A DNA stretch of 64,000 nt from Macrostomum lignano (taxonomy: Eukaryota): assembly GCA_002269645.1 (NCBI GenBank), contig NIVC01000032.1, positions 806,001 through 870,000 of the forward strand, read 5' to 3'. Below the pieces are notes generated by a model that saw nothing but the letters and a program-made list of their open reading frames with translations, searched no databases and was not told where the DNA came from. Below, piece by piece: positions 1,447-28,391 of this stretch (position 1 is the stretch's first letter; the number at the start of each line of letters is the position of its first letter). A program made the translations under genes and the position numbers.

Positions 1447-2437
1447 ATGACTGCGGACGCGTTGAATTCATCCAGACGGCCAAGAAGTTGCTGCGACAAA
1501 TCTTGGAGGTCGGCTAGGCGATCGGTACTAAGCCAGGCAGCCACTGAGTCCACTGCTCACGGTTTGTCTCGAACGGTAGGAGACAGGCACTGGGTCGTGC
1601 GAATGCTCTGGCTATTGGCATTCCTAGTTGTGGTGTCGGTACTATTGAAACTTCTAGTCGACGCTGTGAATCGCCTGGCTAGTCAGCCGGTGAGCACGGC
1701 TGTGTCACCAAATTTGGAAAAGTTTGCATTCCCCGATATTCATATTTGCTCCTATCCGATGGTATCCGCAAGCTACTCCGCCACGATGTCAGACGCTGAG
1801 CTAAATTACACCAACTGGAAGATTAATCGCATTATGAACGTACTACACCAGGCAAACATTACCGGAGAGGAGTTGGTTCGACTAGCTGCTCAAATCTTTG
1901 TTGGCAGCGTTCCATACAGCTTTCTCAGTCGGAACATGGGCATGCGGATGGAGCAGACGATTATTGGCGCAACTGTCATGCCAGTGACGCATAATCTTGT
2001 CCTTGACGTTGACATTATCAAACTGAATCACTACAAATTTCTTAACTGTTTCACGATACGCCCAACGACAAGCACTGCCCAGAGACTGCTTAGTTACGTG
2101 GCCGGACACCTAGACATAACCTTGTTCGCCGACGCGACTTATAATAAAACCCTCAAGCTAGGGAACGATACGATCGATGTCAGAGGACTCGGCTTCATCA
2201 ACTATGAACTGCTGATTGGGTCCGGGTTCAGGATTTATTTTACCGAGCGAGGTCGCTATCCGGATGAGTACAGCACCTCCGTCGCGGTCAGTCCGGGTTT
2301 CCATCACCAGATCAGTCTCAGCATGAGGGTCAACTCCCTAGCCAAGGACAAGAAGCAGTGCGTCAGCGACAAACCGCTAGAAAATATTTACGACCCTGAG
2401 ACGGGAAAAGGGAACAAATATAACTACAGTCTTGGGA
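1447..2437 (+). CDS. DEG/ENaC/ASIC-family sodium channel subunit, exon 1
   Basis: ATG at 1447; N-terminal HG motif (STAHGLSR); TM1 (WLLAFLVVVSVLL); FPDIHICS resembles the FPAVTICN motif; FLNCFTI resembles GNCFTF; GFRIYF and AVSPGFHHQISL motifs. GTAAG donor at 2438, phase 1. Confidence 0.9.
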
Positions 2438-2530
2438 GTAAGTTCATTCATTCTCTTTGGGTTGTTTTTTTTTACTTTTTTATCAAAGACAATACGGAAG
2501 TTTATTGCTAACCGTTAATTTACATTTTAG

Positions 2531-3321
2531 CTTGCTACGCGAAATCGTTGAGCAAAATGTTTCGCGAACTGGGCTTGAACTGTTACATTGCTGGCTACAG
2601 TCCGATAATGTACAGCGACAGGAATGTAACTTGCTGTAACAACCTGACCAGCCTTCTCGATGCTTATTACTCGTCATCTATTCCGTTGAAAAGTGTTCTG
2701 CAAGCGATTCACTTCATCCAGAAGCTTTACAATGGCTCTGTTGTTCGAGAAATGGTCGACTCAGTCAGCAAGATGGAGTCCAACTGTCAGTTTAGCAGGC
2801 CTTGCGAAGAGCGAATTTATGAGCCGACAGTGACATCCGTGTTGTTCCCACTGCGCCAGGGACTTCGGACCGAGCTGACAAATATATTTAAACAACTGAC
2901 GCAAGACAGGCAGAAGATGTACTTTGTTCCAGGCAGAGAGTGGATGGTCAACCTGTTCAGCTCCGCTTACGGTCCGAACAGCACCACCGAATCGCAAAAG
3001 GAGCTGGTAGACGCAGCGTCTGAGAACATCGTCCGTCTACACATCCACGCTGGAGAGCTGAGCTCGACGCTACTCAAACAAGATATTTCTTACAATTTCG
3101 AAGATTTAACGGCAGGTATTGGGGGTCTGATGGGGCTGTTCATGGGCGGCAGTGTCCTGACTCTGCTGGAACTGATCGAACTCTTTGCATGCCTGATCCT
3201 GGGCCGACAACTGACTGCTAGAAATGCCGCCAACTCTGAAAGCGATTCGACTGTCACTGATCATGCCGGCAATGCAGAGGTGCAGCTTGAAATCGGCTCC
3301 GACCAAAACACTGTCTTCTGA
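2531..3321 (+). CDS. DEG/ENaC channel, exon 2 (TM2 and C-terminus)
   Basis: TTTTAG acceptor ends at 2530; splicing out the 93-nt intron keeps frame (YSLG-T-CYAKS). TM2 is AGIGGLMGLFMGGSVLTLLELIELF. Joined CDS is 1782 nt, 593 aa. Confidence 0.9.
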
Positions 3322-10400: not shown

Positions 10401-10967
10401 GGTATTTTTGCCACTTACCTTGGCTAGGCCCTTGCCAGCTGGCTGGATTGTCAACCCAACTAGGTGTTGCGCATGTACGCTTGTATACAATAGCTATACA
10501 CTATCTTAAGGGGCCAGGTAATATTAAACAGCTTTTATTAGCTGCATAGAATAGCCAAATTTATAATATAATTAGGCTAGTAATTGCCTTTGCCTAAGAT
10601 ATAAGTATAATATAATAATATATTATAAGTATAATATATAATAGTTAATAAGCTCAAAATTTTGCATCACTTGACAGACAGTTACAAGGCATTTTGAACA
10701 TGTAAAGTTTTGTGTTTGTTAAAGCATCCCAATTAAACTACTATGTCTAACAGAAGCCCTAATTAGAGTCAAACATGTTTATATTTGTCTGAGTCAGAGT
10801 AAAAGTTAATGGAGAAAACTGTAAATTAAGTTCAATTTTGGCATCTTGAATATGGACCCTGGATACCAAATGGCACTGCAATTCTGATGCTTAAAAAACA
10901 ACAGGTTTCACGATATGCATTAATATAATAGAAATTTTACTTCATTTTATTGCATGCCGTTGCTCGA

Positions 10968-11297
10968 ATGCAGACGGAGGAGGAAATCCAGGACGGGCCG
11001 TGGAGTCTGAAAGATGATGAGGAGCAGCGACGCAACCGGCGTCGGTCGCACGCGGCCGACCTGCTCTCAGCTGCGTCTGGCGGCGCGAGCGGACTGGCCG
11101 GGGCTGAAGGCAACAAAGAGAACGCACCAAATAAAGGCGCTCTGCATGGCATGTCCGCTAAGCAGCTCACTGAGCACTATGAGGACTGCATTAAATTGTC
11201 TGCTGAAGGGAAAATTTCTGCAAAGAATGCCTTCGCTCTGCATTTGATTGACTATCTGGATGGCATGGTTAAACAGGAGAACTTTGGCGGCTTCCAG
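10968..11297 (+). CDS. NCAPH: Condensin I kleisin (CAP-H/barren), first recognisable coding exon
   Basis: KDDEEQRR...[28 protein letters not shown] matches the CAP-H N-terminal motif; GT donor at 11298. The start is either ATG 10968 or an acceptor CAG at 10971-10973 with an unseen upstream exon. Confidence 0.88.
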
Positions 11298-11339
11298 GTG
11301 TGTGGCATTCGCTTAGAATTTTAAATTTGTGTTGCTTGT

Positions 11340-11762
11340 CCTCAGTTGCTGGGCCAGCCTCCCAGATCCTCAGTTGCTGGGCCAGCCTCCCAGATCCTCA
11401 GTTGCTGGGCCAGCCTCCCAGATCCTCAGTTGCTGGGCCAGCCTCCCAGATCCTCAGTTGCTGGGCCAGCCTCCCAGATCCTCAGTTGCTGGGCCAGCCT
11501 CCCAGATCCTCAGTTGCTGGGCCAGCCTCCCAGATCCTCAGTTGCTGGGCCAGCCTCCCAGATCCTCAGTTGCTGGGCCAGCCTCCCAGATCCTCAGTTG
11601 CTGGGCCAGCCTCCCAGATCCCCAGTTGCTGGGCCAGCCTCCCAGATCCTCAGTTGCTGGGCCATCAGCCTCCCAGATCCTCAGTTGCTGGGCCATCAGC
11701 CTCCCAGAGTGTCAGTTGCTGGGCCAGCCTCCCAGATCCTCAGTTGCTGGGCCAGCCTTCCA
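11340..11762. repeat. 28-nt minisatellite (CTCAGTTGCTGGGCCAGCCTCCCAGATC), about 15 copies, NCAPH intron 1
   Basis: Direct reading of tandem units. Confidence 0.95.
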
Positions 11763-11848
11763 GAATAGATTACACAAATAAAGAATCCGCAAAAAATGCA
11801 TAGCAACCAAACTAACGAGTCTCCTGAAATCACCGCCGCAACCGCCAG

Positions 11849-12771
11849 GTGGCCTCCAGCTCCCTAGACGCTGGCGCCAAAATCTACGCCGGTCGGGTAG
11901 ACGCAGTCCACCACGAGGCCTACAAAGTTCTTGGCGGGCTTGGCCGGTCCACAACTTCTGCAGAGAAAAAATCCAATGACAACGACATCAACAGCGACGA
12001 TGACGGAGGCAACGCTGGCGAGGCCGACGACGATGACGACAGGCCAATGTCGGGCAACAGGCGCAAAGCTGCGGCCGAACGGAAGCGCCGCCAGAAAGCT
12101 GTGATCGCATCTAATCTGGCTCGGATTCGCTTGAAACCGGCCAGTTTGAGATTTGACGTTGATCCGCTCTTCCAACAGCAGGCGTCCGCTTATGACGATG
12201 GCGGCACGGGAGAACTAAGACTCAACAATGTCTACGTGGTTGACAATGCGTGCGAGATTCTGCTGGATAGCGACGCGTCAGTTTGTATTGGCGCTTGCGA
12301 GTCGACTAATCAAGACACGTCTTCTTTTTCTAACAAGCAGCTATGCCGATTGGAAGATGTTGACATTAGTAACCGTTTAGCAACGGTTGCTAATCGCCTT
12401 GACAGCAGCGTCCTACAAGAAGAAGACGAAGACGAAGCAAATAACGAGTGGCTCTGCTTTGCGTTTAGAAGATTTTCTTTCCTACGTCGAAATGGCGGCG
12501 GCCTAAACGACGTCACATTCGGCGGCGGTTTTGGTGCAGCAGATCAGAGCGCCGTTCTGGCCGATTTTGTTGCCAGACTGCCGCCGCCAGAGGATGATGA
12601 CTATCCCGAGCAGCCGCCTGCTGATCACCTAGACGCGGACGATGATAATCACGGCGGATTCATTGACGAGTGCACTATGGATGCCGGCGTCGGGATGCAG
12701 ATCGACATGTGCGGCGAACGCAACGCTGTGGTGGTTAATACGGCGGATAGTAAACTGGCTGGAGAGAGCTT
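11849..12771 (+). CDS. NCAPH: NCAPH exon 2
   Basis: VASSSLDAGAKIYAGRVDAVHHEAYKVLGGLG is the conserved CAP-H motif; FDVDPLFQQQASAYDDGG also conserved. CAG acceptor ends 11848; GTAAG donor at 12772, phase 2. Confidence 0.9.
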
Positions 12772-12829
12772 GTAAGCACTGGTGGCTTGAATTGGCTGGT
12801 ATTGCTGATGTCAGATGTATTGTAGCCTA

Positions 12830-13055
12830 GGGGGTTGCAGCCTAGTGGTCAGAGCTTCGGACTCACGACTTGAAAGATCGGGGGTTCGATTCTCGATCCC
12901 ACTGGAACAAAATGTGTCCTTGAGCAAGACACTTGCCAGCATTAGCTGGGGTATTTGAGGGTGGCGACCCCCCCCCCCCCCCCAGTCCTTGGACTGAACA
13001 GCCGTACGCAGCCGTCAGATGCGCCGCGCAAATAGCTGCAGCTGAGCTGTCGGTT
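12830..13055 (+). mobile_element. tRNA-derived SINE family A (CORE/Meta-like central domain), internally deleted
   Basis: A/B-box head (GCCTAGTGG...GGTTCGATTC); GTCCTTGAGCAAGACACTT core; shared 3' body. Confidence 0.8.
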
Positions 13056-13402
13056 TATAGGATTTGTCTATTTTAAATTTAACAAGAGGAAATCGCCATT
13101 CTATTCATGAATAGCATCCAATCATAAAACCTGAACACAAACTGATACCTAAACTATCCGATTTTTAGAAATACGAATTTTTAGTTTCTTAGAAGCATAA
13201 GGCTATTCGATTCTTAGAAACTTATAGTTAACGTCCGATTCCTAAAATAACAAATTTATCCGTTTCTAAGAAGAAAATGCGGGATTTTTAGAAGCTTAAG
13301 TTATCCAATTTGAAAAAACACGAATTTCGTTTCTAAGAAATTTAAGCTATCTGATTCTTAGAAACAAACTGTTGATTCTTAGAAATAGAAACTTCCGATT
13401 CT

Positions 13403-13719
13403 TAATAATAATAATAATAATAATAACTGATTACACCTGCCCTAATGGGCAGATTTGCAACCGACAGCTCAGCCGCAGCTATTTGCGCGGCGCATCTGAA
13501 GGCTGCGTACGGCTGTTCAGTCCAAGGACTGGGGGGTCGCCACACACCCTCAATTACCCCAGCTAATGCTGGCACCCATTTTACAGCTGGGTGAACTGAA
13601 GCAATGCAGTGTTAAGTGTCTTGCTCGAGGACACAAACTGTTTCGAGTGGGATCGGGAATCGAACCCCCGACCTTCAAGTCGTGAGTCCGACGCTCTGAC
13701 CACTACGCTACAACCCCCC
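13403..13719 (-). mobile_element. SINE family A, reverse orientation, with (TTA)n tail
   Basis: Reverse complement of the 33278 copy, including head, core and tail. Confidence 0.85.
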
Positions 13720-13873
13720 GATTTTTAGTAAGATGAAAATTATCCAATTCTTAGAAACGTGAATGATCTGATTCTTAGAAATTGGCCCTAACATAATTTC
13801 TATTTCTTAGAAACAAATTCCCACAGAAAATAACACATAAATCCCAATTTCAAAACCGATTTCTCAACCGCAG

Positions 13874-14441
13874 CCATCCGAACGCCAGTAGAAATTTTGT
13901 GGAAGCAATTCGCGATCTGCTCTCTGATCGCTATGCTCATTTGAGCGCCAACGGCGCCGCTAGCAGCGGCAGTGGAGTCGCCGGCGGCCGACTTACCGGC
14001 GGAGAATTCTTCCGTCTATTCGCTGACCCGGCTAATTGGAAGAGGAAAAAGTGCAAGTTAACTGCGCTATTATCGAAAGCGACAACTGCGTCTGCGGCTT
14101 GTTCAGCAGCGGCGGCGGAGAAAAGAGACGGCGCCGTCGCAGGCGCGGCTTGTTCTGCCGCAGCTCCGGCAGCTTCAACAGCTCGCCGACGCCAAGCAGC
14201 TAAAGCCGCCACGGATCAGTTGCTGACTGACAGCCCTGCAGATTGGCGAAAGAAATTAGCTGTATCTAGATCTGGGTTAAAGCTATCCGATACTGTTATT
14301 AGCAGGCATATGCAATCAGAATTTAATTTGCCGCCCGTGATGGCGCCTGTTCAATCTGGCGTTGTTGGAGACTTTGCTGGTCGTTGCGTCAAGCAGAACC
14401 TGTTAAATTTGATTGCAGATAATCGGCATTGCTTCCAGAGT
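13874..14441 (+). CDS. NCAPH: NCAPH exon 3
   Basis: CGCAG acceptor ends 13873 with matching phase 2; FADPANWK resembles WAGPxHW; GTGAGT donor at 14442, phase 0. Confidence 0.75.
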
Positions 14442-14461
14442 GTGAGTCTTGGCTGCTTTTT

Positions 14462-15300
14462 TAATTATCTCACTTCCGGTCTCAATTATCTATATTTTTC
14501 AGCGGATTATCGCACTTCCGGTCTCAATTATCTATATTTTTCAGCGGATTATCGCACTTCCGGTCTCAATTATCTATATTTGTCAGCAGATTATCTCACT
14601 TCCGGTCTCAATTATCTATATTTGTCAGCAGATTATCTCACTTCCGGTCTCAATTATCTATATTTGTCAGCGGATTATCTCACTTCCGGTCTTAATTATC
14701 CATGTCTTTCCGTGTATTATCTATAATTTTCGGCGGAATATCTCACTTCTGGTTTTAATTATCCGTGTTTTTCAGCGGAGTATCTCACTTCCGGTTTTAA
14801 TTATCCATATTTTTCAGCGGATTATCTCACTTCCGGTCTCAATTATCCATATTTTCAGCGGATTATCTCACTTCCGGTCTCAATTATCTATATTTCCATG
14901 TCTTAATTATCCATGTCTTTCCGTGTATTATCTATAATTTTCGGCGGAATATCTCACTTCTGGTTTTAATTATCCGTGTTTTTCAGCGGAGTATCTCACT
15001 TCCGGTTTTAATTATCCATATTTTCAGCGGATTATCTCACTTCCGGTCTCAATTATCTATATTTGTGAGCGGATTATCTCACTTCCGGTCTTAATTATCC
15101 ATATTATCAGCGGACTATCTCACTTCCGGTCTCAAGTATCTATATTTTTCAGCGGATTATCTCACTTCCGGTCTCAATTATCCATATTTTTCAGCGGATT
15201 ATCTCACTTCCGGTCTAAATTATCCATATTTTTCAGCGGATTATCTCACTTCCGGTCTCAATTATCCATATTTTCAGCGGATTATCTCACTTCCGTTTTC
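14462..15300. repeat. 42-nt minisatellite (ATTATCTCACTTCCGGTCTCAATTATCTATATTTTTCAGCGG), about 20 copies, NCAPH intron 3
   Basis: Tandem units; explains the 14-aa periodicity in the ORF track. Confidence 0.95.
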
Positions 15301-15364
15301 TAATTTTCCATGTCTATCCGTGGATTATCTTATTTCCAGTTCTCAAAATCCGATTTCATCGCAG

Positions 15365-15682
15365 GCCTCATCAGACGCGGACGCCAAGAACCACTCGCAG
15401 ATCAACGACTCCCTATTATCAGTCGGGCAGGCTGACGATAACGAAAATGTCGACCCGGCTATCGCGCACGATCTGGACGATGACGCCGATTTAAACAATT
15501 TTGGCGACGACAACGCGGCCGCTTACGACGCCGATCAGCAGCAGGACCCTGTCGGCGGACTGACGGCAGTTGATCAGCCATTTGCCGATGCGTTCACGCA
15601 GGCTGTGGGGCAGTCTACTCAACTGCCGTTCTCTCAGGTGCCTGGATCGCAGCAGCTGCAGCCGATGCAGGCCCCTTATAAG
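15365..15682 (+). CDS. NCAPH: NCAPH exon 4
   Basis: CGCAG acceptor, phase 0; acidic region ending QAPYK, which joins exon 5 to give APYKVNQVDIAYAKTAK (human APQKVNKIEIHYAKTAK). Confidence 0.8.
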
Positions 15683-15744
15683 GTGCGATTTTGCTCAAAC
15701 ATATTAGTATTCTAAGTTACTAGGACGTACCGTCATACCAGGAT

Positions 15745-15796
15745 CCCAGAGTGTCCTCAGATCCCATAGTGTCCTCAGATCCCAGAGTGTCCTCAG
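15745..15796. repeat. Left remnant of the 18-nt GTGTCCTCAGATCCCA(G/T)A minisatellite, split by the LTR element
   Basis: Same unit as 26478-27657. Confidence 0.9.
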
Positions 15797-16871
15797 TGAT
15801 GTGTTCCTTATTACCAGTCCTCAACTGTAATCAAGGAACAATCACTTCTAGCTCTGTAGCTAGGCAACCCAGTAATCAAATGAAGGTATTCAATTACCTT
15901 TGAGTCCTTAAATGAGAGCTCTCGTAATAATCCTCGTCCGTAGTATCGCGATCAGTAACTTTCCTTTCCTTCAGGAAGTTTAGGCGCCTGGTAACAGTTG
16001 ATCTGGTCCGTTATCTCCTTTGTCCTCTTGACTTTTTGCCGGCCGGTATCTGTAGTTCGGACCAATAAGAAGCTTCCAAATTAACAATGGGTACCCTGCG
16101 CCAAACTGCGGTTTAATATAAGCCTACTCCTTCTAGCAGTGCCTCTATGCACTCTAGGTATAGCTCCGGAAACCACTGATAGTCTTCTAAGATCTATCAG
16201 GGGCAGTCCTTCTGGAGACTGCAACCAGTAGAGTCTAAACAGACTCAAGAGTCTCAGCAGACTCAAATAAACTCAAGTCTCAATAGACTTGAGCGAGACG
16301 TCTCAACCAACGGGCGCAAATGAGTAAGGCTTACCGCAAGAACTCGTCCACGACGCGAGTTTCTTCAGGAAGGCTTCACTAGAGCTTCCTCTTCGGAGCT
16401 TCTCTCTCTTGGAGATTTTCTGGCTCCGGGTCCGTTCCGGACCACTTGTATTTATAGGCGTTCAGACCTCTCTCGAGGTCGTACATCACTGTCTTCGCAA
16501 ATGTCAAAGGGTCACGATTCGGTGGCTGTCAAGCATGACAGGGTAGAAAGTTGCGCAACTAGTCTACTGTAAAAGCGCATGATTGGTTACCGTAGCTGGT
16601 AGACTTTGATTGGTTCATCCGGGTGCAACCCGAGTGCAAACAAAATGATGACTTGAAGGTGGGGTTTGAATTGACAGTTGTTGGTCGCACGTGATTGGGT
16701 GATTTCTAAAATTAGCATGCTCGAGGTCTCTCTCTTCCTATTGGTTAGTCCGAATATACTTATAGTTCAAAGCATACCTTTATTCATGCTCTTCAATTTA
16801 CTACTAAATAAAATGTGTGAGTAGTACATTAACACTTTTATGTCTTCTTACGGGAGGTAGAACACTCTACA
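15797..16871 (-). repeat. 3' LTR
   Basis: Matches 25403-26477 at a constant offset of 9606 at the start, middle and end; no mismatch seen in spot checks. Confidence 0.97.
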
Positions 16872-17089
16872 AAATCTCCCATGTTTACAAAAAACTCGTC
16901 CCGAGTTTTAAATAGAGGATTGAAACGCATAAAAAGTTCAAGCATGTCTTTATAATAATCATTTGTCACAAGTGTTACAGGTATTTAGTAATGGGTAGTT
17001 AAGAGCGTTGGTTATAAAAGTTATTTAAAGGTAAGTATACGCATGCAAATAAAATGTTTTTGGTTACAGTATTGACATGTGCGCCAAGA

Positions 17090-17302
17090 CTAACAATAGG
17101 CGCACTGCCGCAAACTACTTCTACCTATCGGGCAATTCTGCCAGAGCTGAATATAATGTGAGTCGCTTAAATATTGTCCGCATATGCGATGTCTGTTTTC
17201 ACAAATAATTGGTGGCTTGACAGCCAAGTCATCAGTTAAACATATTGGGCATTCGTAGAGTTGCTGTAGTTGGGGCGCCTGTTTGGACAGTGCGTTGCCC
17301 AT
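17090..17302 (-). CDS. Accessory 70-aa ORF: MGxxxS N-terminus and degenerate C3HC4-type RING finger
   Basis: MGNALS; CPIC-x12-CENRH-x2-CGQ[Y]-x12-CPI[G]R; strong Kozak context ACAATGG. Confidence 0.6.
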   Translation of the reverse strand: MGNALSKQAPQLQQLYECPICLTDDLAVKPPIICENRHRICGQYLSDSHYIQLWQNCPIGRSSLRQCAYC

Positions 17303-17413
17303 TGTCGTCGTCGCTTGAAGTTTGAAGTCGCTCAGATTAGTCGCCTCTTACGACAAGCTTGCGAAGCTGTAGAGCTATTCTGACCCGGTCTCTACACGGG
17401 TTGTTTTCGCAAC

Positions 17414-17664
17414 TTAACGAGGTCGCAGATTGTAGCCATGGTGCTGGTTCTCGGTTGATGTTTGTGTCTCCTCGTGTTTTGTTGCGATGTGGCGGTTCGC
17501 CGAACGCGTGCGATCAGCGTTGTCTAGTGACGGTAAAAACGTTGTCGTGTCAGTGTTGATCTTCTTTAGTCGATGAATGTGCACGTAGAATTGGTGCTGA
17601 TGAGGATCTTGCACATTGGCCAGGCGTGCCGTTGTCGGTGACGTTAGTTGGACCACTCGATATG
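17414..17664 (-). CDS. Integrase C-terminus (GPY/F module) in a shifted frame
   Basis: YRVVQLTSPTTARL...VHIHRLKK...GYNLRPR*. Adding one C at about 17664 restores KYKGPYRVVQ. Confidence 0.8.
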
Positions 17665-20600
17665 TCCTTTGTACTTCTGTGCGTGTTTGTGCGTCTGTTG
17701 CGGCGGATAGTGCAGGTAGACGATGTCGCCGGCTGTCAGAGTTGTCGATCTCGTGTCGGTGCTGGTGGTTAGAGCCACCTGATTGTCGATGTTGTGCTTG
17801 GCTACTTTCCATGCGAGGTGTAGTTGCGTGACGAACTTTTGAATGGACGTCGGGACTTCCACATATTGCGATGGTAGTAGTTGCTGTGCCAATAGGTTTG
17901 GCGGCTGGAAGTCTCGCCCAAACATTAGAAAGAATGGCGTATTGTCCGTTGATCGATGAATAGCGCTGTTGTAGGCCATTGTTACTGCTTGCAGATAGAT
18001 GATCCAGTCGTCCGGTTGTTGATGCGCGAAGTGTGTAATCATCTCGTGTAGGTTGCGGTGAAACCTTTCAACCATGTTCGCCTTCGGATTGTAGGTCGAT
18101 GTGTAGATCTGCGTGATGTTGAGGATCTTCACCACTTGCTGAAAGAGTTGAGACGTAAACTGCGATCCATTGTCCGATGTGAGGTTCTTTGGCGTACCGT
18201 ACTTGCAGATGATGTCGTTGAAGAAACCCATTGCCACTGTCTGAGCTGTGATGTCCGGTATTGGTATGGCAATAGCAAACTTTGAGAAAATGTCCAAGGC
18301 TGTTAGGATGTAGGTGTAGGCTATGCCATGGAGACAGCTCGGTGGCAGCGGTCCGGTGATGTCGATGCTGAGACAGTCCATAGTTGTTGACTTTGGTATC
18401 GATTGTAGCTGTGGTTTTTGTCGTCGTCCTGTCTTCGATGCTGCGCATGAGTGGCAGTTGTTGCAATACTGCTTGATGTCGCCATGCATGCTTGGCCAAA
18501 AGTAGTATTGCTCCACTCTTGCAACGGTTTTGGCTGCCGACAGGTGTCCAGCGAGTGGGTTGTCGTGCAGCTCGTTGAGAATTGCCTGCCTAAACGAATA
18601 TGGCATGTAGATTTTAGGTTTGTTGTCACTCATCCAGTAGAGTCGTGACTTGTTGATTGTTAAATGTTGTCGCTGCTTGCGCAGGAATTTTCGTTCCACG
18701 GGGCTGAGCTTGATGTCCTTGTCGTTGTTTTTAACTGCTATGTAGAAGTTGTCGTGTTCCGTCTCATCCACCAATTCCTTGATGTTAGGGATTGGATGAA
18801 TGGCGTTGACTTCGTAGGCTCTTGACAGGGCGTCCGCGGCCTTGTTAGTAATTCCTGGTTTGTAGACGAGCTTGTAGTTGTAGTCCTGGATCTTGAGTGT
18901 CATCCTGATGAGTCGGTTGTTTGTTTGTCCTTTTGTAGTTACGACGTAGGTCAGCGGTGCGTGATCTGTGCGTACTATCGTCTGTAATGGAGATCCATAG
19001 ATGTAGTAGTGAAACTGTCGTAGGGCGAACAGAACTCCTAGTAGTTCTCGTTCCGTAGCTGACCATTTTGTCTCATTCGGTTTAAGTGCTCGACTGACGT
19101 AGGCTATAGGTCGTTCCTTTTTGTCTTCAGTTTCCTGTAGTAGGACTGCTCCGAGTCCCGTTCCTGAGGCGTCTGTCTCGATGATGAAGGGTTTGTCGAA
19201 GTCCGGATGCTGTAGCAGTGCGTCTGATGTCAGCTGTCGTTTGATTTCGTCAAAACTTTCTTGTTGCTTTTGTGTCCAATTCTCCTGCTTCCATTTGTCG
19301 AACTTGAGCAGGTCGTACAGCGGCTTTGCTGTCTTCGCGAAGTTGGGTAAGAACTTTCGGAAGTATTGCGCAAGTCCAAGAAATGATTGGACCTTCGTTA
19401 TGCTAGTTGGCGTAGGAAACTTTTTCACTTTATCCACGTTGTCTGGGTCCGGTGAAATTCCTTTGGCTGTCACCTGATGTCCCAGGTAACGCACGTTGTC
19501 TCGGAAGAATTTGCATTTAGTTGGTTGTAGCTTCAGACCTTGACGTTGTATAAGCGCGAGGGCCTTCTCCGTCGCTTCATAGAGTCGTTCGAAGTCTTCT
19601 CCGTAGGCCAAGATGTCGTCAACATAGTGCAACAGGTTCGTGCATCCTGCAAGCATGTATGCTGTTAGTCGGCTCATCGTTGCTGGGCTGTTGCTGAGTC
19701 CCATCGGCGATCGATTGTACTCGTATACTTGTCCATTGTAGGTTTTGAAAGCCGTGTACTGTCGTGACTCTTTCTCGATTTCAATTTGCCAAAATCCATG
19801 ACGTAGGTCGAACACTGTGAACAATTTTGCCGTGTTGAGCTTTGCTAGTAGTTCGGAGATCTTCGGTAGGCTTTGCTGATCCGTCGGTATGTACTTGTTC
19901 AGCAGTCTGAAGTCACATACGAGTCGTCTTTCGTTAGTCTCCTTCTTTTGCACCAAGAGACATGGTGATGAGTATGCTGAAATGGCTTTGCTGATGATGC
20001 CGTGTTTCAGCATTTTGTCGATAATCTCATCGAAGTGCTGTTGCAGATGCTTGGCGATCGGGTACGGTTTGCACTGAATTGGTTCCGTGTGCGGCAGAAG
20101 TTTGATTTCCTGTTTGATGTCCTTGGCTCGTCCGATGTCGTAGTCATGGTGGCAGAAAGCGTCGTTGTACTTCCACAACAGCTGTCGAACTTTCCTCTTT
20201 TGCTGTTCCGTAATCGGGCTGTCATCCAAATTGATCTTCTTTTGAAATTCTTCCTCTGTTAGTCGTGGAGTCGCTTGCTCAATCAGCATAACCGATGCTT
20301 GGGTGTTGAGATGACCGATGCACATTCCTTGTCGTAGATGAACCGTTTCTGTGTTCGGGTTGAATATTTGTACTGGCAGCTGTTTATCTTTTGCAACCAG
20401 TACTAGTGCCGTAGGCATCATAATTTGGTGTTTAGCCGTGACTCTTCTGTTTGGGTCGAATATCATTGCTTCCTCCGTTGCGTTAGTTGCCTTTGCCTTT
20501 ATCCAGCAGGCGCTCTCCGGTTGGATGATGACATCTTGTTGCAATGTTACTTTTGGTAGTACTCGGATCTGGTTGATCAATGGTTGTTCTACCGAGTCGA

Positions 20601-20960
20601 TCTTAAACGTTTGCTTATTGAAGTCGAAGGTCAATGGTAGTCTAAGCTGCTTGAACGTGTCGATGCCAACAATAACGTCCTGGTTTGGGAGTCTGTCGAT
20701 GACGTACGATGGAACTGTCAAATGTTTATTAGCGATTCTTAAATCAATGTCGGCTTTTCCCAGAATGTTTAGCGAATGTCCTCCTGCTCCTGCAACTGCG
20801 ATTGTTGCTGGCCGTAGAGCAAGTCGTAGCTTGTTGCACAGTTGTTTTGATATAACTGTGATGGAGCTGCCGGAATCGAGTAGCGCTCGACATGGTAGAT
20901 TGTTGATTACCACTTGAGCCATGGCTTTGCCAATTTCGGCGTGTAGAGTACATACGTAGT
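17644..20960 (-). CDS. pol: Pol: aspartic protease, reverse transcriptase, RNase H, integrase
   Basis: LLDSGSS (DSG at 20869-20877); YVDD at 19615-19626; IETDASGTGLGAVL RNase H; HHCC and DDE integrase (SIDITGP, SDNGSQF, VERFHR). Confidence 0.97.
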
Positions 20961-21195
20961 TCTCTGGCCATTTTGGGTCTTGCTGTTCTGCTTGATAGTT
21001 AGGTGGTTGTATTCTTGGTGCCGTTGGTGTTGTCGGAATCGATGGATATAGCCGCGTTGCTAGTGTCGGTTGCCCTTGAACCTCACGATGTGCAGTTTCT
21101 GTTAGTTCTAAACTGTTGTCGCCTTCCGTTGTCGTTCTTTGCATTATGGCATTCACTGTCTTCTTAGCTGTTGGACAAGTTTGACTGAAGCACCG

Positions 21196-22927
21196 TACGA
21201 TTGACGAGATGATGAAGACTGCCGTGACAATCCACACAATGCAAGCACCGTAGAAGATGAATCCTTGATAGAGACTGCCTCTTCCATTGAGCAGCTCCCA
21301 GAAGCTGTTTGTCCAAAATGATTTGATGGCGCTGTCCATTGAAACAAGGACGGGAAATCTTCCTGTCTCGGTTCCTTTGTCCTTTCTTGTGAACAGCTGG
21401 TGAATCATCTTGCGTTGGGTGATGAACGCTTGCAAGAAGTCGTTGATCGTCCATCCTGGTGTTATCTCGTCAAGTTGGATATCGGCGAATGGCGTATACT
21501 TCGTTCTGTTGAATCGGATTTTCAAATCCTCCATGTCGTAGTTTTCGTCGACGATTACTTCCGGTTCTGTGATGTTTGCTGTCGTTCCAGTTGTTTTGAT
21601 GACGTGTAGTGCATTGTCCAGTTGATAATAGTTTGCTGCCGTGGTGCAAGGTCTCGGTATTGCGGTGCCAACGATGATGTTGTGTACCGTGTCCAAGAAT
21701 CCCTGAATTCGTTTTCCTTCGTAGAACGCTTCAATCCTTGGCTTGTCGTAGCAGGTTGTTGACGTGTTCGACGGCAAGATGTTAAAGTGCTGTATCGGCG
21801 TGCACTTGTATATCAACAGATGCTCGTATATTGGAACTGCCAAAACGTTCGTCATTCCGGTGATTTTACGAAAAGTCATCGTAGGGTTGACATAGTAGTT
21901 TTGTCTGGCATAATTTAAGTTGATTGCGTGCATTTTGCAAGTTAGCTGGACCAGTGTTCGATGCAAGTGGTTTAACTGGTTGTGTAGATTGTGATCCAAA
22001 GCCGTTATCTTTGCTGACAGTAGTCGGTTTGACACCAGTTTGGGACGTTCGATGTCACGTCGTCGTCTGTTCTGTTGTTCCTGCTGTTGATACGTTCCGT
22101 TGATGATCGCCAGAAAGGTTTGTTTGTCGTCATCTTTTACGTAGACTGGTATCTCTTGTTCCGAGATGAATAGTGTCTTGTCTGTATCCTTGCATTTCAG
22201 TTTTTGCTCGACTGGTTTCTTTTGAAACGTCAGTGCCAAGTCTCCTGACTTTGCCAAAAACGTGTTTGACAGTAGACCTCCTTCAACTGTGTGATACTTT
22301 TGAAGCTTGCAGTCAATTTCCGGCTCAACTTCCCACGCGAAGAAGTATTGTCGTGACTTAGATGGTTCTTCATATCGTGAGTCGCCTCTGCGTATAATTT
22401 GCCATCGATAGTCTTGATGATATGTTGGACTCAACGGTAAGCTGTATAGTTCCTCATTCCGCAGTATCGGCGTTGGACACCATCCTTTGCTGTATCGGCA
22501 GTCACTTAATTGCAGTTGTAGCGACTCCATTTTTTCAAAAGGATTGTGGTAGAATGGAATATTCCTGATTAGGTAACTGTTTCGTGTCATGTAGTTAGTC
22601 CATGCTTCCGAAAAGTGTACATATCGTCCGTTTGCTGAGTTCTTCGTTCGGTAAAGTTGTGCCTCCCCCACTTTCTCATCCGGTTCTAGCTGACCATCCT
22701 TTGAGAACAGTGTTTGGTTCCATTGTAGACATTCAGCGTGCGACACATGTAGTTCGTGTTGCCAAAATCGAATTCTGTTCCATTGTCCTCGCCAAACTTT
22801 TTCCACTAGGTGCTTGTCTCTAAAGCACACTATTCCGAGTTGTCGATGCTTCTTGATGTTAGCTTTGTAGAGATCAATTGTGATCTTCTTTGGCTTCGTC
22901 TGATTTGTCTTGAAGTAGCTGCATTTG
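21196..22927 (-). CDS. env: gB-like (class III fusion) envelope glycoprotein ectodomain and TM, in frame with pol
   Basis: Furin site RRRR (22057-22068); helix ...VQLTCKMHAINLNY; NPT...A...C motif; CYDKP...G.L...PC; several NxT/S sequons; TM at 21196-21261. Confidence 0.8.
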
Positions 22928-23246
22928 ATGTCGTTGGTATCTTGTAGATCATCGGTTGGATATGCGCATCCGTTGGACATATCATTGGTTTCTCCATTGC
23001 TGTTGCTTTGGTGACTACTGCCGTCAGTAGTATTATGATGATCCAGAATATCCAGAATCGCCATTTTCTGAACGTTGCCGTTGTCTTTGCTGGCATTGGC
23101 TGCGGCTGCCATTCGTTATCTTCTGCGTCCGCATCGTATTCTTCCTCTTGTTCCATTGGCGTTTCCGAGCGCAAGGCATCCGATTCGTTCCGCTGCTTGT
23201 CGTCTTCATCATTTTCTCCTTGCTTTCTTCCGATGTTGTAGTTGTG
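22830..23246 (-). CDS. Bridging frame: acidic linker, internal signal peptide and N-terminus of env
   Basis: Frame open from 23246; RKWRFWIFWIIIILLTAVVTKATA|MEKPMICP has n, h and c regions with an A-x-A cleavage site (22998-23069). Confidence 0.7.
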   Translation of the reverse strand, partial: HNYNIGRKQGENDEDDKQRNESDALRSETPMEQEEEYDADAEDNEWQPQPMPAKTTATFRKWRFWIFWIIIILLTAVVTKATAMEKPMICPTDAHIQPMIYKIPTTSNAATSRQIRRSQRRSQLISTKLTSRSIDNSE

Positions 23247-24730
23247 TCACTCCATTGTCTGCGGTACCCTACTTCGGCCTTGTAGTCGACTGTTTGAATG
23301 TAGGCTTCACCATTTCGTTTATATCGGATCTCGTAGCATTGATCGCTGTCGGAGCTTAGATTTCTTTCTTCCATTCCTTTGTGCCTTCCGTCTTCATGTT
23401 CTTTGTCGGCGGCTTGGTTGTCATCAGCGTCATTCTGCATCTCATAATCGTGATCGCTGCTTTCTTCTTGCTGTTCTTCTTCCATTTCTGCATTTCCGTC
23501 GTTGCTTCTTTCGTTGTCATCCTTCGTTGCCAGTTCTTTGTCGTTGCCTTTGTTTGTTTCTTCTTTTCTTTCATTGATGTCGCTTGGCAATGTTTTTTCT
23601 GTGCTCACTTCTGCCTTTTCTTCTTCGCTGTCAATGTTAGTTTCTTTCATTTCGACCATGCTGATGTTTTTTGTCTTTTCGCTGCTCTCCGCATCGAGCC
23701 AGTCGATTTCATTGATAGTAAAGTCCATTTCTAAGTCGTCTATCGTGAAGACTTGCTGCTCTTGCTGTTCGCTTTCCGGTGTGTACGTGATGGCGTTTGC
23801 ATATCGTTGCATCGCTTGCGTTGGTTGCTTGGGCATGTATCTGGCGTTTCGCGGTCTGTAGCCATTGTTTCCGAAGCGTTTCGTGTTTTGCTGCTGCCAA
23901 TTTTGATGCTGTTGCCATGGTTTTTGCGGCTTCCGTCTGTTGAATGGCTGTCGCGGCATATCATTTCTTGTTGACCGATGAGGACAATTAATTTGGTAGT
24001 GTCCTTCTCGTCCACAGTAATAGCATCTGGCTTGGGCTCGTTCATTTCGTCTTTTTTGTTCGGCGATAACGGCTGTTTGATGTTGCATCAGTTTGTTTAG
24101 TTGCTGTGTCAGTTTCTGCACTTCTGTGTTGCCGGTTGTCATTAGTGGAGCGCTTGCTTCCCACTGCATTCCGCACCGTAAAAGGTCTTCCTCGGTTTCA
24201 ATGTTTTCGCGTAGAAGTCTATCTCGGAGTGACGGCTGTGCATTGTTTATTACGTGCAGAATCAGATTTTGTTCGCGATCCATCAATCGCTGTCGCTCTC
24301 TAGCGGCTAATTCTGCCGCACCCAGAGGTGGTTGGTCTGCAGCTGGCAGTGTTGGCTGATGCAGTGCCTTAATTATCTGACGGATGTCGTCCACAAAGGT
24401 CAGGAAGGATTCGGTTGGCTGCATCCTTCTGTTATGCAACTTGTGCAGTAGCACTGATCTGTTTGTGCCACAGCGGTTGAAATGCGCGCGCAGTTGAATG
24501 ATTAATGCTGGGTAGTTTTGCTGTGTTGCCGCATCTAGTTTACCATAAATCTCTCGTGCAGTGCCTTGGAGGAGTGGTGGCAACAGTTGCGCTTTTTCTG
24601 GATTTTGTAGGTTGTATTCCCTACATACCAGGTCAAAATGATCAACAAAGGTGTTAAAGTCTTTTTCCATAGAAAAGGTGCCAACTGTCTCTTTGATATC
24701 TCTGTGCACCGTTGGATTGCGCCGCGCCAT
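23033..24730 (-). CDS. gag: Gag (capsid, CX2CX4HX4C zinc knuckle, acidic linker)
   Basis: First ATG at 24730 (MARRNP); retrotransposon-gag-like helical region; CYYCGREGHYQINC at 23984-24025; long D/E-rich tail. The frame is open from 24979. Confidence 0.85.
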   Translation of the reverse strand: MARRNPTVHRDIKETVGTFSMEKDFNTFVDHFDLVCREYNLQNPEKAQLLPPLLQGTAREIYGKLDAATQQNYPALIIQLRAHFNRCGTNRSVLLHKLHNRRMQPTESFLTFVDDIRQIIKALHQPTLPAADQPPLGAAELAARERQRLMDREQNLILHVINNAQPSLRDRLLRENIETEEDLLRCGMQWEASAPLMTTGNTEVQKLTQQLNKLMQHQTAVIAEQKRRNERAQARCYYCGREGHYQINCPHRSTRNDMPRQPFNRRKPQKPWQQHQNWQQQNTKRFGNNGYRPRNARYMPKQPTQAMQRYANAITYTPESEQQEQQVFTIDDLEMDFTINEIDWLDAESSEKTKNISMVEMKETNIDSEEEKAEVSTEKTLPSDINERKEETNKGNDKELATKDDNERSNDGNAEMEEEQQEESSDHDYEMQNDADDNQAADKEHEDGRHKGMEERNLSSDSDQCYEIRYKRNGEAYIQTVDYKAEVGYRRQWSDTTTTSEESKEKMMKTTSSGTNRMPCARKRQWNKRKNTMRTQKITNGSRSQCQQRQRQRSENGDSGYSGSS

Positions 24731-25382
24731 GTTGTTGATGGGATAGAACGGTAGCTCTAGGTCTGGGTCGATTTGTAATGGATCTTCCAGTGTGGTGTTT
24801 CTTTCGAAATAAACTTCGGTTGTAACTGATTGTCTCGCGGCGCTTTTGACACCTCGGCTTTCGGCTTTTGGCTGCTTTTTCTGACCTCTTATTCGCTGGC
24901 TGATTTTCGCACTTATGCGGCGTCCCGCAAAGTGTATCTTTAAAGTGCTTGAAGTGCAGCTGCTTATTGCTTTTTTCAAAGGCCTTTCTTGTCTTCGTGA
25001 CGTGCCTTGTCACGTTTTATCAAATTTCGGTTTGTTTTAGCTTTCGTCAAGTGTTTTTAATTTCGGTTTTGTTTTAGTGTGTATTGATTATTTTTCGGTT
25101 TGTTTTCAGTGTACCGGACGTTGTTTTCGGTTTTGTTTAAGGTTTACTCTTGCTCGAGCTCGTTAAAAACAAAAATTTAACACGCGTGCTCAAACGTTAC
25201 TCAAAATTGACAGGTACTCAAGCCTGTATATCTAAACTTTTACTCGAGTTTCAAATCGTACAAAAATCGAAAAGTGTCGAAAAGTGTTACCTCTAACACG
25301 TGCGCGCAAAATTAATGAAGTCGCTCTTTCGTCACTTTACAATAGCTTGGCCAGGCTATTGCTCAAAAGTTTGAGTAGTGCC

Positions 25383-25400
25383 GAGAGGGCGAGATCACCA
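25383..25400 (-). other. Primer-binding site TGGTGATCTCGCCC
   Basis: TGG starts 2 nt inside the 5' LTR boundary and is complementary to a tRNA CCA end; the tRNA is not assigned. Confidence 0.7.
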
Positions 25401-25402
25401 AT

Positions 25403-26477
25403 TGATGTGTTCCTTATTACCAGTCCTCAACTGTAATCAAGGAACAATCACTTCTAGCTCTGTAGCTAGGCAACCCAGTAATCAAATGAAGGTATTCAAT
25501 TACCTTTGAGTCCTTAAATGAGAGCTCTCGTAATAATCCTCGTCCGTAGTATCGCGATCAGTAACTTTCCTTTCCTTCAGGAAGTTTAGGCGCCTGGTAA
25601 CAGTTGATCTGGTCCGTTATCTCCTTTGTCCTCTTGACTTTTTGCCGGCCGGTATCTGTAGTTCGGACCAATAAGAAGCTTCCAAATTAACAATGGGTAC
25701 CCTGCGCCAAACTGCGGTTTAATATAAGCCTACTCCTTCTAGCAGTGCCTCTATGCACTCTAGGTATAGCTCCGGAAACCACTGATAGTCTTCTAAGATC
25801 TATCAGGGGCAGTCCTTCTGGAGACTGCAACCAGTAGAGTCTAAACAGACTCAAGAGTCTCAGCAGACTCAAATAAACTCAAGTCTCAATAGACTTGAGC
25901 GAGACGTCTCAACCAACGGGCGCAAATGAGTAAGGCTTACCGCAAGAACTCGTCCACGACGCGAGTTTCTTCAGGAAGGCTTCACTAGAGCTTCCTCTTC
26001 GGAGCTTCTCTCTCTTGGAGATTTTCTGGCTCCGGGTCCGTTCCGGACCACTTGTATTTATAGGCGTTCAGACCTCTCTCGAGGTCGTACATCACTGTCT
26101 TCGCAAATGTCAAAGGGTCACGATTCGGTGGCTGTCAAGCATGACAGGGTAGAAAGTTGCGCAACTAGTCTACTGTAAAAGCGCATGATTGGTTACCGTA
26201 GCTGGTAGACTTTGATTGGTTCATCCGGGTGCAACCCGAGTGCAAACAAAATGATGACTTGAAGGTGGGGTTTGAATTGACAGTTGTTGGTCGCACGTGA
26301 TTGGGTGATTTCTAAAATTAGCATGCTCGAGGTCTCTCTCTTCCTATTGGTTAGTCCGAATATACTTATAGTTCAAAGCATACCTTTATTCATGCTCTTC
26401 AATTTACTACTAAATAAAATGTGTGAGTAGTACATTAACACTTTTATGTCTTCTTACGGGAGGTAGAACACTCTACA
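25403..26477 (-). repeat. 5' LTR
   Basis: Begins TGTAGAG and ends CACATCA on the minus strand; followed by the PBS. Confidence 0.97.
26055..26062 (-). promoter_or_regulatory. LTR TATA box (TATAAATA) with four upstream CCAAT boxes
   Basis: Plus-strand TATTTATA at 26055 (16449 in the 3' LTR). ATTGG at 16582, 16609, 16694 and 16740 (add 9606 for the 5' LTR). Confidence 0.65.
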
Positions 26478-27657
26478 TCAGATCCCAAGAGTGTCCTCAG
26501 ATCACATTTTGTCCTCAGATCCCAGAGTGTCCTCAGATCCCAGAGTGTCCTCAGATCATAAAGTGTCCTCAGATCCCAGTGTCCTCAGATCACAGAGTGT
26601 CCTCAGATCCCATCGTGTCCTCAGATCACAGTGTCCTCAGATCCCATAGTGTCCTCAGATCCCATAGTGTCCTCAGATCCCAGAGTGTCCTCAGATCCCA
26701 TAGTGTCCTCAGATCACATTTTGTCCTCAGATCCCAAGAGTGTCCTCAGATCACATTTTGTCCTCAGATCCCATAGTGTCCTCAGATCACAGTGTCCTCA
26801 GATCCCATAGTGTCCTCAGATCCCATAGAGTCCTCAGATCCCATAGTGTCCTCAGATCACAGTGTCCTCAGATACCATAGTGTCCTCAGATCCCATAGTG
26901 TCCTCAGATCCCAGAGTGTCCTCAGATCCCATAGTGTCCTCAGATCACATTTTGTCCTCAGATCCCAAGAGTGTCCTCAGATCACATTTTGTCCTCAGAT
27001 CCCATAGTGTCTTCAGATCACAGTGTCTCAGATCCCAGAGTGTCCTCAGATCACATTTTGTCCTCAGATCCCAAGAGTGTCCTCAGATCCCAAGAGTGTC
27101 CTCAGATCCCAAGAGTGTCCTCAGATCCCAAGAGTGTCCTCAGATCCCAGAGTGTCCTCAGATCACATTTTGTCCTCAGATCCCAAGAGTGTCCTCAGAT
27201 CCCAAGAGTGTCCTCAGATCCCAAGAGTGTCCTCAGATCCCAAGAGTGTCCTCAGATCCCAGAGTGTCCTCAGATCACATAGTGTCCTCAGATCACAAAG
27301 TGTCCTCAGATCACAGGGTGTCCTCAGATCCCAGAGTGTCCTCAGATCACATAGTGTCCTCAGATCACAGGGTGTCCTCAGATCACAGGGTGTCCTCAGA
27401 TCCCAGAGTGTCCTCAGATCCCAGAGTGTCCTCAGATCCCAGAATGTCCTCAGATCCCAGAGTGTCCTCAGATCCCAAGAGTGTCCTCAGATCCCAGAGT
27501 GTCCTCAGATCCCATAGTGTCCTCAGATCACAAAGTGTCCTCAGATCACAGGGTGTCCTCAGATCCCAGAGTGTCCTCAGATCACATAGTGTCCTCAGAT
27601 CACAGGGTGTCCTCAGATCACAGGGTGTCCTCAGATCCCAGAGTTTCCTCAGATCCA
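26478..27657. repeat. 18/19-nt minisatellite GTGTCCTCAGATCCCA(A)GA, about 65 copies
   Basis: Direct reading of tandem units. Confidence 0.95.
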
Positions 27658-27753
27658 AAATTGTATTGATACGAATGTAGAATTCTAAATTTTATTTTAC
27701 TGTAACTATTTTTAATATTCCTAAATGCCTTCTCTAATTACGACAAAACACAG

Positions 27754-28095
27754 GTGAACCAAGTGGACATTGCCTACGCTAAAACTGCCAAGCGGATCAA
27801 CATCAGCCGCCTCAAGCGGTCAATGTGGCAATTGCTAGAAACTGACGGCAGTCCCGCCGCTGCTGTCACAGCCATGGAAGTGTGCAGCCAGGACAACTCT
27901 TCAACTCGTCGAAACAGTCAGAAAGAAGACGAAATTGTTGGCAACAACGATGCAAATAATGAGGCATTGTTTAATGGCGAAAGATCATTTGCCAGATTGT
28001 TGCAACAATTGCCGCCGAAAGTTGGCGCAACCACTGCTCAGGATCTGTCTGTGTCTATTGTATTCAGCTGTCTGTTGTACCTGGCTAATGAGAAG
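27754..28095 (+). CDS. NCAPH: NCAPH exon 5 (C-terminal winged-helix region)
   Basis: VNQVDIAYAKTAKRINISRLKRSMWQLL and LSVSIVFSCLLYLANEK motifs; CAG acceptor and GTTAGT donor, both phase 0. Confidence 0.92.
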
Positions 28096-28181
28096 GTTAG
28101 TATTGATTGCATGTTTTTTTCTTCTACTGTAAGTAGTATAAAAACCCAGCTAACAAATAGAAATGTTATTCAATTTGCCAG

Positions 28182-28391
28182 ACCCTGCACCTAACTAGCA
28201 GTGAGAACCTGTCGGACATGAGCATAACACACGGACTGCCAAAACACGAAGTCGATCTCAGAGTGGCTTTAAACCCGCGATTGAAACAACAGCAGCAGCA
28301 ACAACAATCGAGCGAGCAGGCAAAACGCAAGCGTCAGGCCACCATCCAGGAGCTGTGGGGGGCGGACAGCGATGAAGACGAGGATTTGTAA
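28182..28391 (+). CDS. NCAPH: NCAPH terminal exon
   Basis: CAG acceptor ends 28181; TLHLTSSENLSDMSI resembles human NLKLEGTEDLSDVLV; TAA at 28389-28391. Confidence 0.85.
   Translation, partial: TLHLTSSENLSDMSITHGLPKHEVDLRVALNPRLKQQQQQQQSSEQAKRKRQATIQELWGADSDEDEDL

Follow-up and report, generated by a model that had tools for sequence, protein, structure and literature searches.

The window (the whole 64,000-nucleotide stretch of DNA analysed here, whose host is most likely the flatworm Macrostomum lignano) carries a recent insertion of a Ty3/gypsy (Metaviridae-type) element that is young, present in multiple copies and of the GAG-ENV-POL, gB-type kind. The host assignment follows the database labels of proteins with 96% identity. 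We consider it likely that this family produces one membrane-threaded Gag-Env-Pol polyprotein and, through the steps proposed below, a particle which would bud from one cell and fuse with another.

Overall structure of the element

The element spans 15797-26477 on the minus strand, beyond the limits of 17414..24730 given in the first-pass annotation, and is bounded by identical 1,075-bp LTRs and a 4-bp target-site duplication. The insertion lies in a tandem repeat of 18 bp, between exons of a condensin Cnd2 gene. Like other Metaviridae, the element has two direct LTRs that end in TG...CA, a short target-site duplication and Pol enzymes in the order protease-RT-RNase H-integrase. The parts of the element are as follows.

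15793..15796, second copy 26478-26481, no strand: target-site duplication, 4 bp
25403..26477, minus strand: 5' LTR, 1,075 bp, TG...CA ends, 1,075/1,075 (100%) identity to the 3' LTR
25389..25400, minus strand: primer-binding site (PBS) just inside the 5' LTR; the 12-mer is the PBS listed for Platyhelminthes_Rhabditophora_Mlig_errantivirus_2
23960..24730, minus strand: Gag, capsid-like region directly from the Met, one CCHC knuckle (24025-23984)
23076..23959, minus strand: acidic, fast-evolving linker between Gag and signal; window-copy frameshift near 23.2 kb
22998..23075, minus strand: predicted internal signal peptide with basic n-region, h-region (23057-23013) and Ala-x-Ala cleavage motif
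21265..22997, minus strand: Env ectodomain, modelled as a gB-like class III fusogen; window-copy frameshift near 22.9 kb
21196..21264, minus strand: predicted Env TM anchor, hydropathy 2.4, with basic residues and cysteines after it
17414..21195, minus strand: spacer (predicted cytosolic) and Pol enzymes and tail; window-copy frameshift near 17.7 kb
20916-20631, minus strand: protease (Pfam)
19950-19470, minus strand: RT (Pfam)
19278-18879, minus strand: RNase H (Pfam)
18603-18084, minus strand: integrase (Pfam)
17090..17302, minus strand: accessory gene remnant of 70 codons (Met-Gly at its start, Ser as residue 6, RING motif decayed)
15797..16871, minus strand: 3' LTR (LTR comparison)

The family comprises at least 40 env-bearing matches of 92-100% identity, with 40 of 91 candidates scored. 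Yeast Ty3 is the best of the solved relatives of the RT (E 1e-65), followed by caulimovirus (6e-44) and foamy virus (6e-41), and Peptidase_A17 is absent from the Pfam search of the element; by these matches, the RT is of Ty3/gypsy type, neither BEL/Pao nor retroviral. No tRNA genes are present in the window and Rfam has no match over 15500-26800. Since the LTR contains no canonical heat-shock element, the element lies, by the pattern described in PMC12801592, outside the heat-induced families of that paper.

Gag, linker and internal signal

Gag (pN/pS 0.05) does not have Gly at position 2. It matches zf-CCHC (E 4e-4) and DUF1759 (E 2e-3) in Pfam and, weakly, nucleocapsid structures in the PDB. 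The linker consists of 33% Asp/Glu over 152 aa and is only 46% identical to the sister subfamily, as against 92-99% in the other parts.

Directly after the linker lies a signal-peptide-like segment, as the first reading of the sequence had proposed, with h-region hydropathy of up to 2.2. The segment is kept in the sister subfamily and a similar one is present in all 12 of the 12 homologs with a knuckle upstream of Env. In the window copy it is located in a short ORF (22830-23246), in another frame than the long Env-Pol ORF. Both the signal and the TM calls are based on hydropathy only, supplemented by the cleavage motif in the case of the signal.

The Env glycoprotein

A single-sequence PDB search with the Env ectodomain gave no match and its single-sequence fold is poor (pLDDT 30.6). 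With a 32-sequence alignment, the AlphaFold2 model reaches pLDDT 75.5 and the profile matches gB with E 1.4e-10. The model itself, a monomer, matches gB in Foldseek with E 1.9e-17 and a TM-score of about 0.41-0.48, and the fold also matches nyami-, chu- and rhabdo-like G proteins. Upstream of the TM there is a match to the viral fusion glycoprotein family PF24664 (E 1.8e-5, below the curated cut-off), and the ESM Atlas yields no more than leads for Env (0.89, PF24664). A furin motif at 22068-22057 and the gB-like fold are in line with the furin-cleaved fusogen proposed earlier, and the ectodomain contains six N-glycosylation sequons.

With a pN/pS of 0.14, Env is under purifying selection across the ectodomain. 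Two features of the gB-type class, env between gag and pol and an HSV/gB-type ectodomain fold, are present in the element, and the third, an ectodomain flanked by signal and TM, is indicated by hydropathy and motif. Uninterrupted ORFs, also a feature of that class, occur in some siblings but not in the window copy as assembled. The evidence supports a class III fusogen-like Env that has a predicted signal, a furin site and a predicted TM.

Reading frame of the window copy and of the family

The long ORF of the window copy (17644-23115 on the minus strand, with 1,823 codons from stop to stop and its Met at 23112) runs as originally described, from a glycoprotein-like part through a TM helix into the protease, RT, RNase H and the integrase, uninterrupted by a stop, and its single strong hydrophobic helix is located at 21264-21196. 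The glycoprotein of ~570 aa assigned to its beginning is present, but the first ~60 codons are not glycoprotein because Env starts in the other frame. The proposal of one in-frame polyprotein holds for Env and Pol of the long ORF and for the family, but not for the whole window copy as assembled, which is split by three frameshifts near 23.2, 22.9 and 17.7 kb and does not carry Gag, signal and Env-Pol in one ORF. These frameshifts are not common to the siblings (19 of 20 are without the 23.2-kb break).

A single stop-free Gag-Env-Pol frame of about 2,480 codons is uninterrupted in 3 of 22 siblings; all 15 landmarks fall in one such frame in 2 of 20, and Gag through integrase do so in one of the two sister-subfamily copies. 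As assembled, 18 of 20 siblings have broken frames, as does the window copy. At every one of the seven junctions the frame continues in 11-18 of the 20 siblings, the breaks have no preferred place, and 92 of the 112 frame-changing bins occur in a single copy only. A break between TM and protease is present in 8 of 20 siblings, five of them at one site directly after the TM; since this site falls on a short homopolymer and the break does not track kinship, we infer a recurrent error there and deem a programmed frameshift unlikely. The assembly has numerous one-base differences among copies, and short-read contigs from four runs cross from TM to spacer without gaps.

Env occupies one and the same position in every sibling of sufficient length, as well as in the diverged subfamily, in a second Macrostomum family (2,852 aa) and in nematode proteins, which supports env between gag and protease as native to the family. 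Among 39 distant homologs, 12 have the knuckle-signal-ectodomain chain and 10 have a protease after Env in the same chain (Pfam), some of these homologs being eukaryotic gene models able to splice over breaks and one (P0001) being plainly chimeric. As Gag, Env and Pol share a stop-free frame in three of the 22 siblings, the predicted product of the family is a single Gag-Env-Pol polyprotein. Such a frame fixes the Env:Pol ratio at synthesis only, not in particles.

Accessory RING genes

Downstream of pol and ahead of the 3' LTR, where the window copy has no more than the 70-codon remnant, some members of the family contain two tandem double-RING ORFs (222 and 212 aa), the first of which begins with a myristoylation-type start. 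Their Pfam RING matches are below the curated cut-offs and protein searches with them gave no homolog. The titles and abstract starts of the literature searched hold no report of RING accessory genes in LTR elements, and these genes look undescribed in searchable papers to that extent.

Proposed processing and alternatives

With Gag, Env and Pol in one frame in the family, the reading that fits best is a polyprotein threaded through the membrane, and a plausible scheme for its processing can be put forward from sequence. A full-length RNA would be translated into one Gag-Env-Pol polyprotein, of which Gag would be synthesised in the cytosol. The internal signal would then direct the ~575 residues that follow it into the ER, with the signal cut by signal peptidase, until the TM helix halts transfer and Pol emerges in the cytosol. 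Gag would stay membrane-bound via the signal remnant and Pol via the Env tail, and this anchoring could replace the matrix domain which Gag apparently lacks. The element protease would release capsid and enzymes while furin cleaves Env, and Env trimers may finally provide a budding particle capable of fusion with a second cell in that animal, for example germline or stem cells.

A more elaborate version, which we offer tentatively and regard as rather unlikely, combines this threaded chain of a matrix-less element (Gag held on membranes via the signal remnant, Pol via the Env tail) and cell-to-cell passage by a stand-alone gB-like fusogen with the two double-RING proteins, one of them lipid-anchored; these would serve as a budding adaptor of the arenavirus Z kind or, as ubiquitin ligases, counter host defence. 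If true, a laboratory flatworm would harbour a complex virus with accessory genes.

Among the alternatives, it is possible, with a low probability, that the single frame exists but splicing, ribosomal frameshifting or internal starts yield unequal protein amounts, leaving the flavivirus-like polyprotein as a minor product. Capsids need Gag in large excess over Pol and Env, the linker and the vicinity of the protease contain slippery-type heptamers, and the frame change just after the TM is common to five copies. However, nine heptamers in 7.3 kb are unremarkable, the breaks are scattered over all junctions, and no polypyrimidine-AG acceptor lies upstream of the signal or of the protease. Contigs of four short-read runs (three presumed RNA, one of uncertain kind) contain no canonical splice joint, which is uninformative on splicing.

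Still less probable is that Env is made and processed as modelled but serves intracellular steps, such as assembly in a membrane-anchored state or transfer inside a single cell or syncytium, with no intercellular infection. The full class III fold, the furin motif and the ectodomain-wide purifying selection are hard to explain without fusion, and related RNA-virus G proteins function alone. In favour of such a role, herpesvirus gB depends on partner proteins for entry (PMC13524379, discussion). An origin of the glycoprotein segment as a nested or passive insert, or through faulty assembly, to which the one-base differences among assembled copies might point, is refuted by Env at the same place in the siblings, the diverged subfamily, the second Macrostomum family, nematode proteins and the short-read contigs of four runs, and by the purifying selection on the segment.

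The single frame raises the question of how the family sorts Gag, Env and Pol across the membrane and balances their amounts. With a transgenic laboratory model as the likely host, and copies in it that were recently mobile, entry by a gB-type Env becomes addressable in the animal.

Comparison with known systems

Drosophila gypsy is an Env-bearing Ty3/gypsy errantivirus that moves from soma to germline. It resembles the window element in being a Ty3/gypsy element with Env, and differs in having env after pol, with an F-type Env made from a separate spliced message. In the structural polyproteins of flaviviruses and alphaviruses, a capsid is followed by an internal signal, a luminal glycoprotein and a stop-transfer segment, with cuts by host and viral proteases, and in flaviviruses the enzymes come after. 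The likeness to the proposed one-chain topology is by analogy only, as these are unrelated RNA viruses with class II fusogens.

The gag-env-pol order, noted in the first-pass annotation, is already published, including a Macrostomum entry: nematodes, bryozoans and flatworms have been found to carry GAG-ENV-POL gypsy elements with gB-type Env (Chary and Hayashi, eLife 2026, PMC13524379). These share with the window element Ty3/gypsy pol, env between gag and pol, multiple copies and a gB-type Env with signal or TM segments on its flanks. They do not form one clade, and how their Env mediates entry is stated there as unknown. The flatworm Env rows include six Schmidtea elements. The main text does not contain 'polyprotein', 'single ORF', 'splic', 'in-frame', 'RING' or 'accessory'. 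In the literature searched, the phrase 'gag-env-pol' and similar ones occur in one paper only; signal-peptidase processing of such a polyprotein was not found in titles and abstract starts, and the accessible part of PMC4604429 has nothing on the window element. What remains of value beyond the catalogued order is the single frame, the question of gB-type entry and the apparently undescribed double-RING genes.

The Macrostomum lignano entry of the PMC13524379 table, Platyhelminthes_Rhabditophora_Mlig_errantivirus_2 (RT clade S), is probably the window family or its sister. The two are alike in PBS 12-mer, Env type and species label. Because the start-to-start LTR spacing differs (9,727 versus 9,606 in the window element, by 121 bp), the entry may be a sister subfamily.

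A continuous gag-env-pro-pol ORF with a nyamivirus-like Env is reportedly present in non-canonical ERVs of nematodes. The window Env matches nyamivirus G by fold and some of its homologs are nematode proteins; however, those ERVs are defined by a nematode host and an RT clade of their own, whereas the host here is most likely a flatworm, from which the closest named proteins come. The env and pol of those ERVs are described as flipped (Sacco et al. 2022, doi 10.1099/jgv.0.001739, as cited in PMC13524379). Atlas virus of Ancylostoma ceylanicum (Belpaoviridae) has a 2,828-residue polyprotein including Env, no stops or introns and identical LTRs (PMC9094657). The window element is alike in its identical LTRs and, as predicted for its family, in one polyprotein containing Env, whereas Atlas virus is a BEL/Pao element of Gag-Pol-Env order with a class II phlebovirus-like fusogen, and with Env last its Pol need not recross the membrane.

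Insertion and surroundings of the element

The Ty3/gypsy retroelement occupies minus-strand positions 26477 to 15797, and its insertion is very recent, since its two LTRs (1,075 bp each, with TG...CA ends) are identical at every position and a 4-bp target duplication borders both. The site of insertion is an 18-bp tandem repeat located between exons of a condensin gene:

10932-28194, plus strand: host condensin Cnd2 gene, whose introns contain several tandem repeats and the element

Gag starts at 24730 and contains a capsid-like region and a single CCHC knuckle. The best solved-structure relative of the RT is yeast Ty3 (E 1e-65). Elsewhere in the window, two long ORFs of an amiloride-sensitive sodium channel (DEG/ENaC) gene are located at 1393-3321 on the plus strand, and the region from 28500 to 64000 is densely packed with short, unrelated tandem repeats whose periods range from 8 to 31 bp.

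Reading frame of the element and its copies

The first-pass annotation placed an envelope gene between Gag and protease, in frame with Pol through integrase. The Gag-Env-Pol description is correct, but in the window copy Gag, the signal and Env-Pol occupy three frames, and the integrase tail is in a fourth ORF. We compared the frame with the 20 closest genomic copies of sufficient length (siblings) and two copies of a diverged sister subfamily. The window frameshifts near 23.2 and 22.9 kb are absent from 19 and all 20 of the siblings, respectively, and that near 17.7 kb from 18, the other two stopping short of the site. Short-read contigs disagree with the window at these three positions in 3/4, 4/4 and 4/4 runs; because such contigs lose rare variants, they fit assembly error and a mutation private to the window copy equally.

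Most siblings are broken at sites other than those of the window, and 92 of 112 frame-changing bins are found in a single copy. At each junction, 11-18 of the 20 copies are continuous, with within-domain junctions no better than between-gene junctions. Two siblings hold all 15 landmarks within one frame of 2,480 codons, and in one of the two sister-subfamily copies a frame of 2,487 codons keeps this signal, furin motif and TM. A break between TM and protease is present in eight siblings, five of them at one site; we read this as recurrent error, since the site is at a short homopolymer and the five carriers are not mutual closest kin. The nematode elements described in 2022 by Sacco and colleagues reportedly have one continuous gag-env-pro-pol ORF.

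Among 39 distant Env homologs, some of which are gene models that may be spliced across breaks, in 12 the Env match is preceded by a knuckle in the same chain, with a hydrophobic segment between the two in all 12, and a Pfam protease follows Env in 10. The Gag-signal-Env-Pol layout is therefore old. Homologs with the knuckle-Env layout include nematode proteins and a second Macrostomum family (2,852 aa). Env comes last in one distant homolog, a BEL/Pao element. The second, distant Macrostomum family (P0004, P0042 and P0043; 2,852-2,859 aa annotated) has a Gag-signal-Env-TM-Pol chain and an Env 28% identical to that of the element.

Variation among the siblings is mosaic. Compared over window positions 16880-25400, six copies have about 100-120 differing sites in Env and hardly any in RT, while three have 75-100 in protease-RT-RNase H and few in Env; this copy-by-copy concentration of differences points to frequent recombination between copies. 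The acidic linker (23270-23959) shares 46% identity with its counterpart in the sister subfamily, as against 94-99% for Gag, Env and RT.

Structure and maintenance of Env

Single-sequence structure prediction gave no usable fold for the Env ectodomain. A search over 1.84 billion representatives yielded 40 homologs, and the profile of an alignment of the window ectodomain with 31 of them, picked for shorter length, matches herpesvirus gB (E 1.4e-10). The AlphaFold2 model (mean pLDDT 75.5) matches gB structures in a structure search (E 1.9e-17, TM-scores 0.41-0.48), and also nyami-, chu- and rhabdo-like virus glycoproteins. The modelled ectodomain is a class III fusogen fold. One homolog (P0007) has a NADAR domain upstream of its Env-like region.

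Env is a real and native part of the element: besides the gB-like fold, the segment has at least 40 genomic matches (92-100% identity; 40 of 91 candidates scored) and a pN/pS of 0.14, beside 0.12 in integrase and 0.05 in both Gag and protease-RT-RNase H, the values being pooled from 20 non-independent pairwise comparisons with the window copy as reference. The low ratio means that Env is maintained by selection and is no passenger.

Proposed membrane threading

Beyond the order, fold, motifs, selection and single frame in some copies, which are directly supported, we propose that the Gag-Env-Pol chain would be threaded co-translationally through the membrane. Basic residues before the signal and after the TM of Env fit a cytosolic Gag and Pol and a luminal Env. 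Env would be processed by signal peptidase and furin, and capsid and enzymes would be released by the element's own protease. Gag seems to be without a matrix domain, since its second residue is not Gly and the capsid-like match already starts near residue 23; a remnant of the signal may hold Gag at the membrane instead. A single frame sets the Gag-Env-Pol ratio at synthesis only. Particles require far more capsid than enzyme or spike, and the ratio therefore has to be corrected by turnover or by an RNA form not seen here.

Double-RING accessory genes

The window copy retains, in the interval from pol to the 3' LTR, a decayed gene which is intact at another locus (L031):

17090-17302, minus strand: accessory-gene remnant, an ORF of 70 codons that opens with Met-Gly, has Ser as its sixth residue and contains a RING motif that has decayed
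L031:1501-2169 and 2224-2862: intact double-RING pair between pol and 3' LTR, the first protein with a myristoylation-type start

Fourteen siblings carry the short form of this ORF and three a longer form, while three have no match in the available stretch. All three long-form loci examined contain a pair of ORFs (222 and 212 aa) followed by LTR sequence, each with two RING-type Cys/His motifs and 29% identical to one another; relative to them, the window's subfamily is missing about 1.1 kb of the pol-LTR interval. The RING assignment is based on the pattern of the motifs, on scores of 0.91 from Atlas, and on Pfam and PDB matches that fall below threshold. We take the start of the first protein to be a myristoylation motif, and the double-RING proteins presumably resemble arenavirus Z. 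Since the window copy moved recently without them, intact RING genes are dispensable in cis.

The RING gene has at least 151 genomic matches (150 of 226 candidates scored), many of which directly follow a family copy, and some are clustered locally. Several diverged copies lie within tens of kb on contigs C2121, C1130, C87, C272 and C4009 of the searched genome (G000); these clusters may represent arrays of host genes, nested elements or traps resembling piRNA clusters.

Comparison with published elements

The element is genuine and well formed, it belongs to a known kind, and its gene order is already published. According to the text of Chary and Hayashi (PMC13524379), every env-bearing gypsy element from Nematoda, Bryozoa and Platyhelminthes has a gB-type Env and the GAG-ENV-POL order, the nematode case being credited to Sacco et al. 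2022. A table there gives 16 copies of Platyhelminthes_Rhabditophora_Mlig_errantivirus_2. The PBS 12-mer of that element is identical to the 12-mer at window 25389-25400, and database proteins labelled Macrostomum lignano are 96% identical to our Pol. The likeliest host is therefore this flatworm, and the catalogue probably already contains the family or its sister.

Polyprotein processing is not discussed in the main text of PMC13524379, whose figure supplements may show ORF layouts. RING accessory genes in such elements are not described in the literature searched, including the main text of PMC13524379, and no RING is present among the extra ORFs of rotifer elements in the part of PMC5408684 consulted. 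The proposed threading across the membrane and the accessory RING genes go beyond the published order, and both are observable in a laboratory animal. Atlas virus (PMC9094657; preprint 10.64898/2026.03.22.711591) provides a precedent for an Env within a single retroelement polyprotein, although its Env is last in the chain (PMC9094657), whereas that of the present element lies between Gag and Pol.
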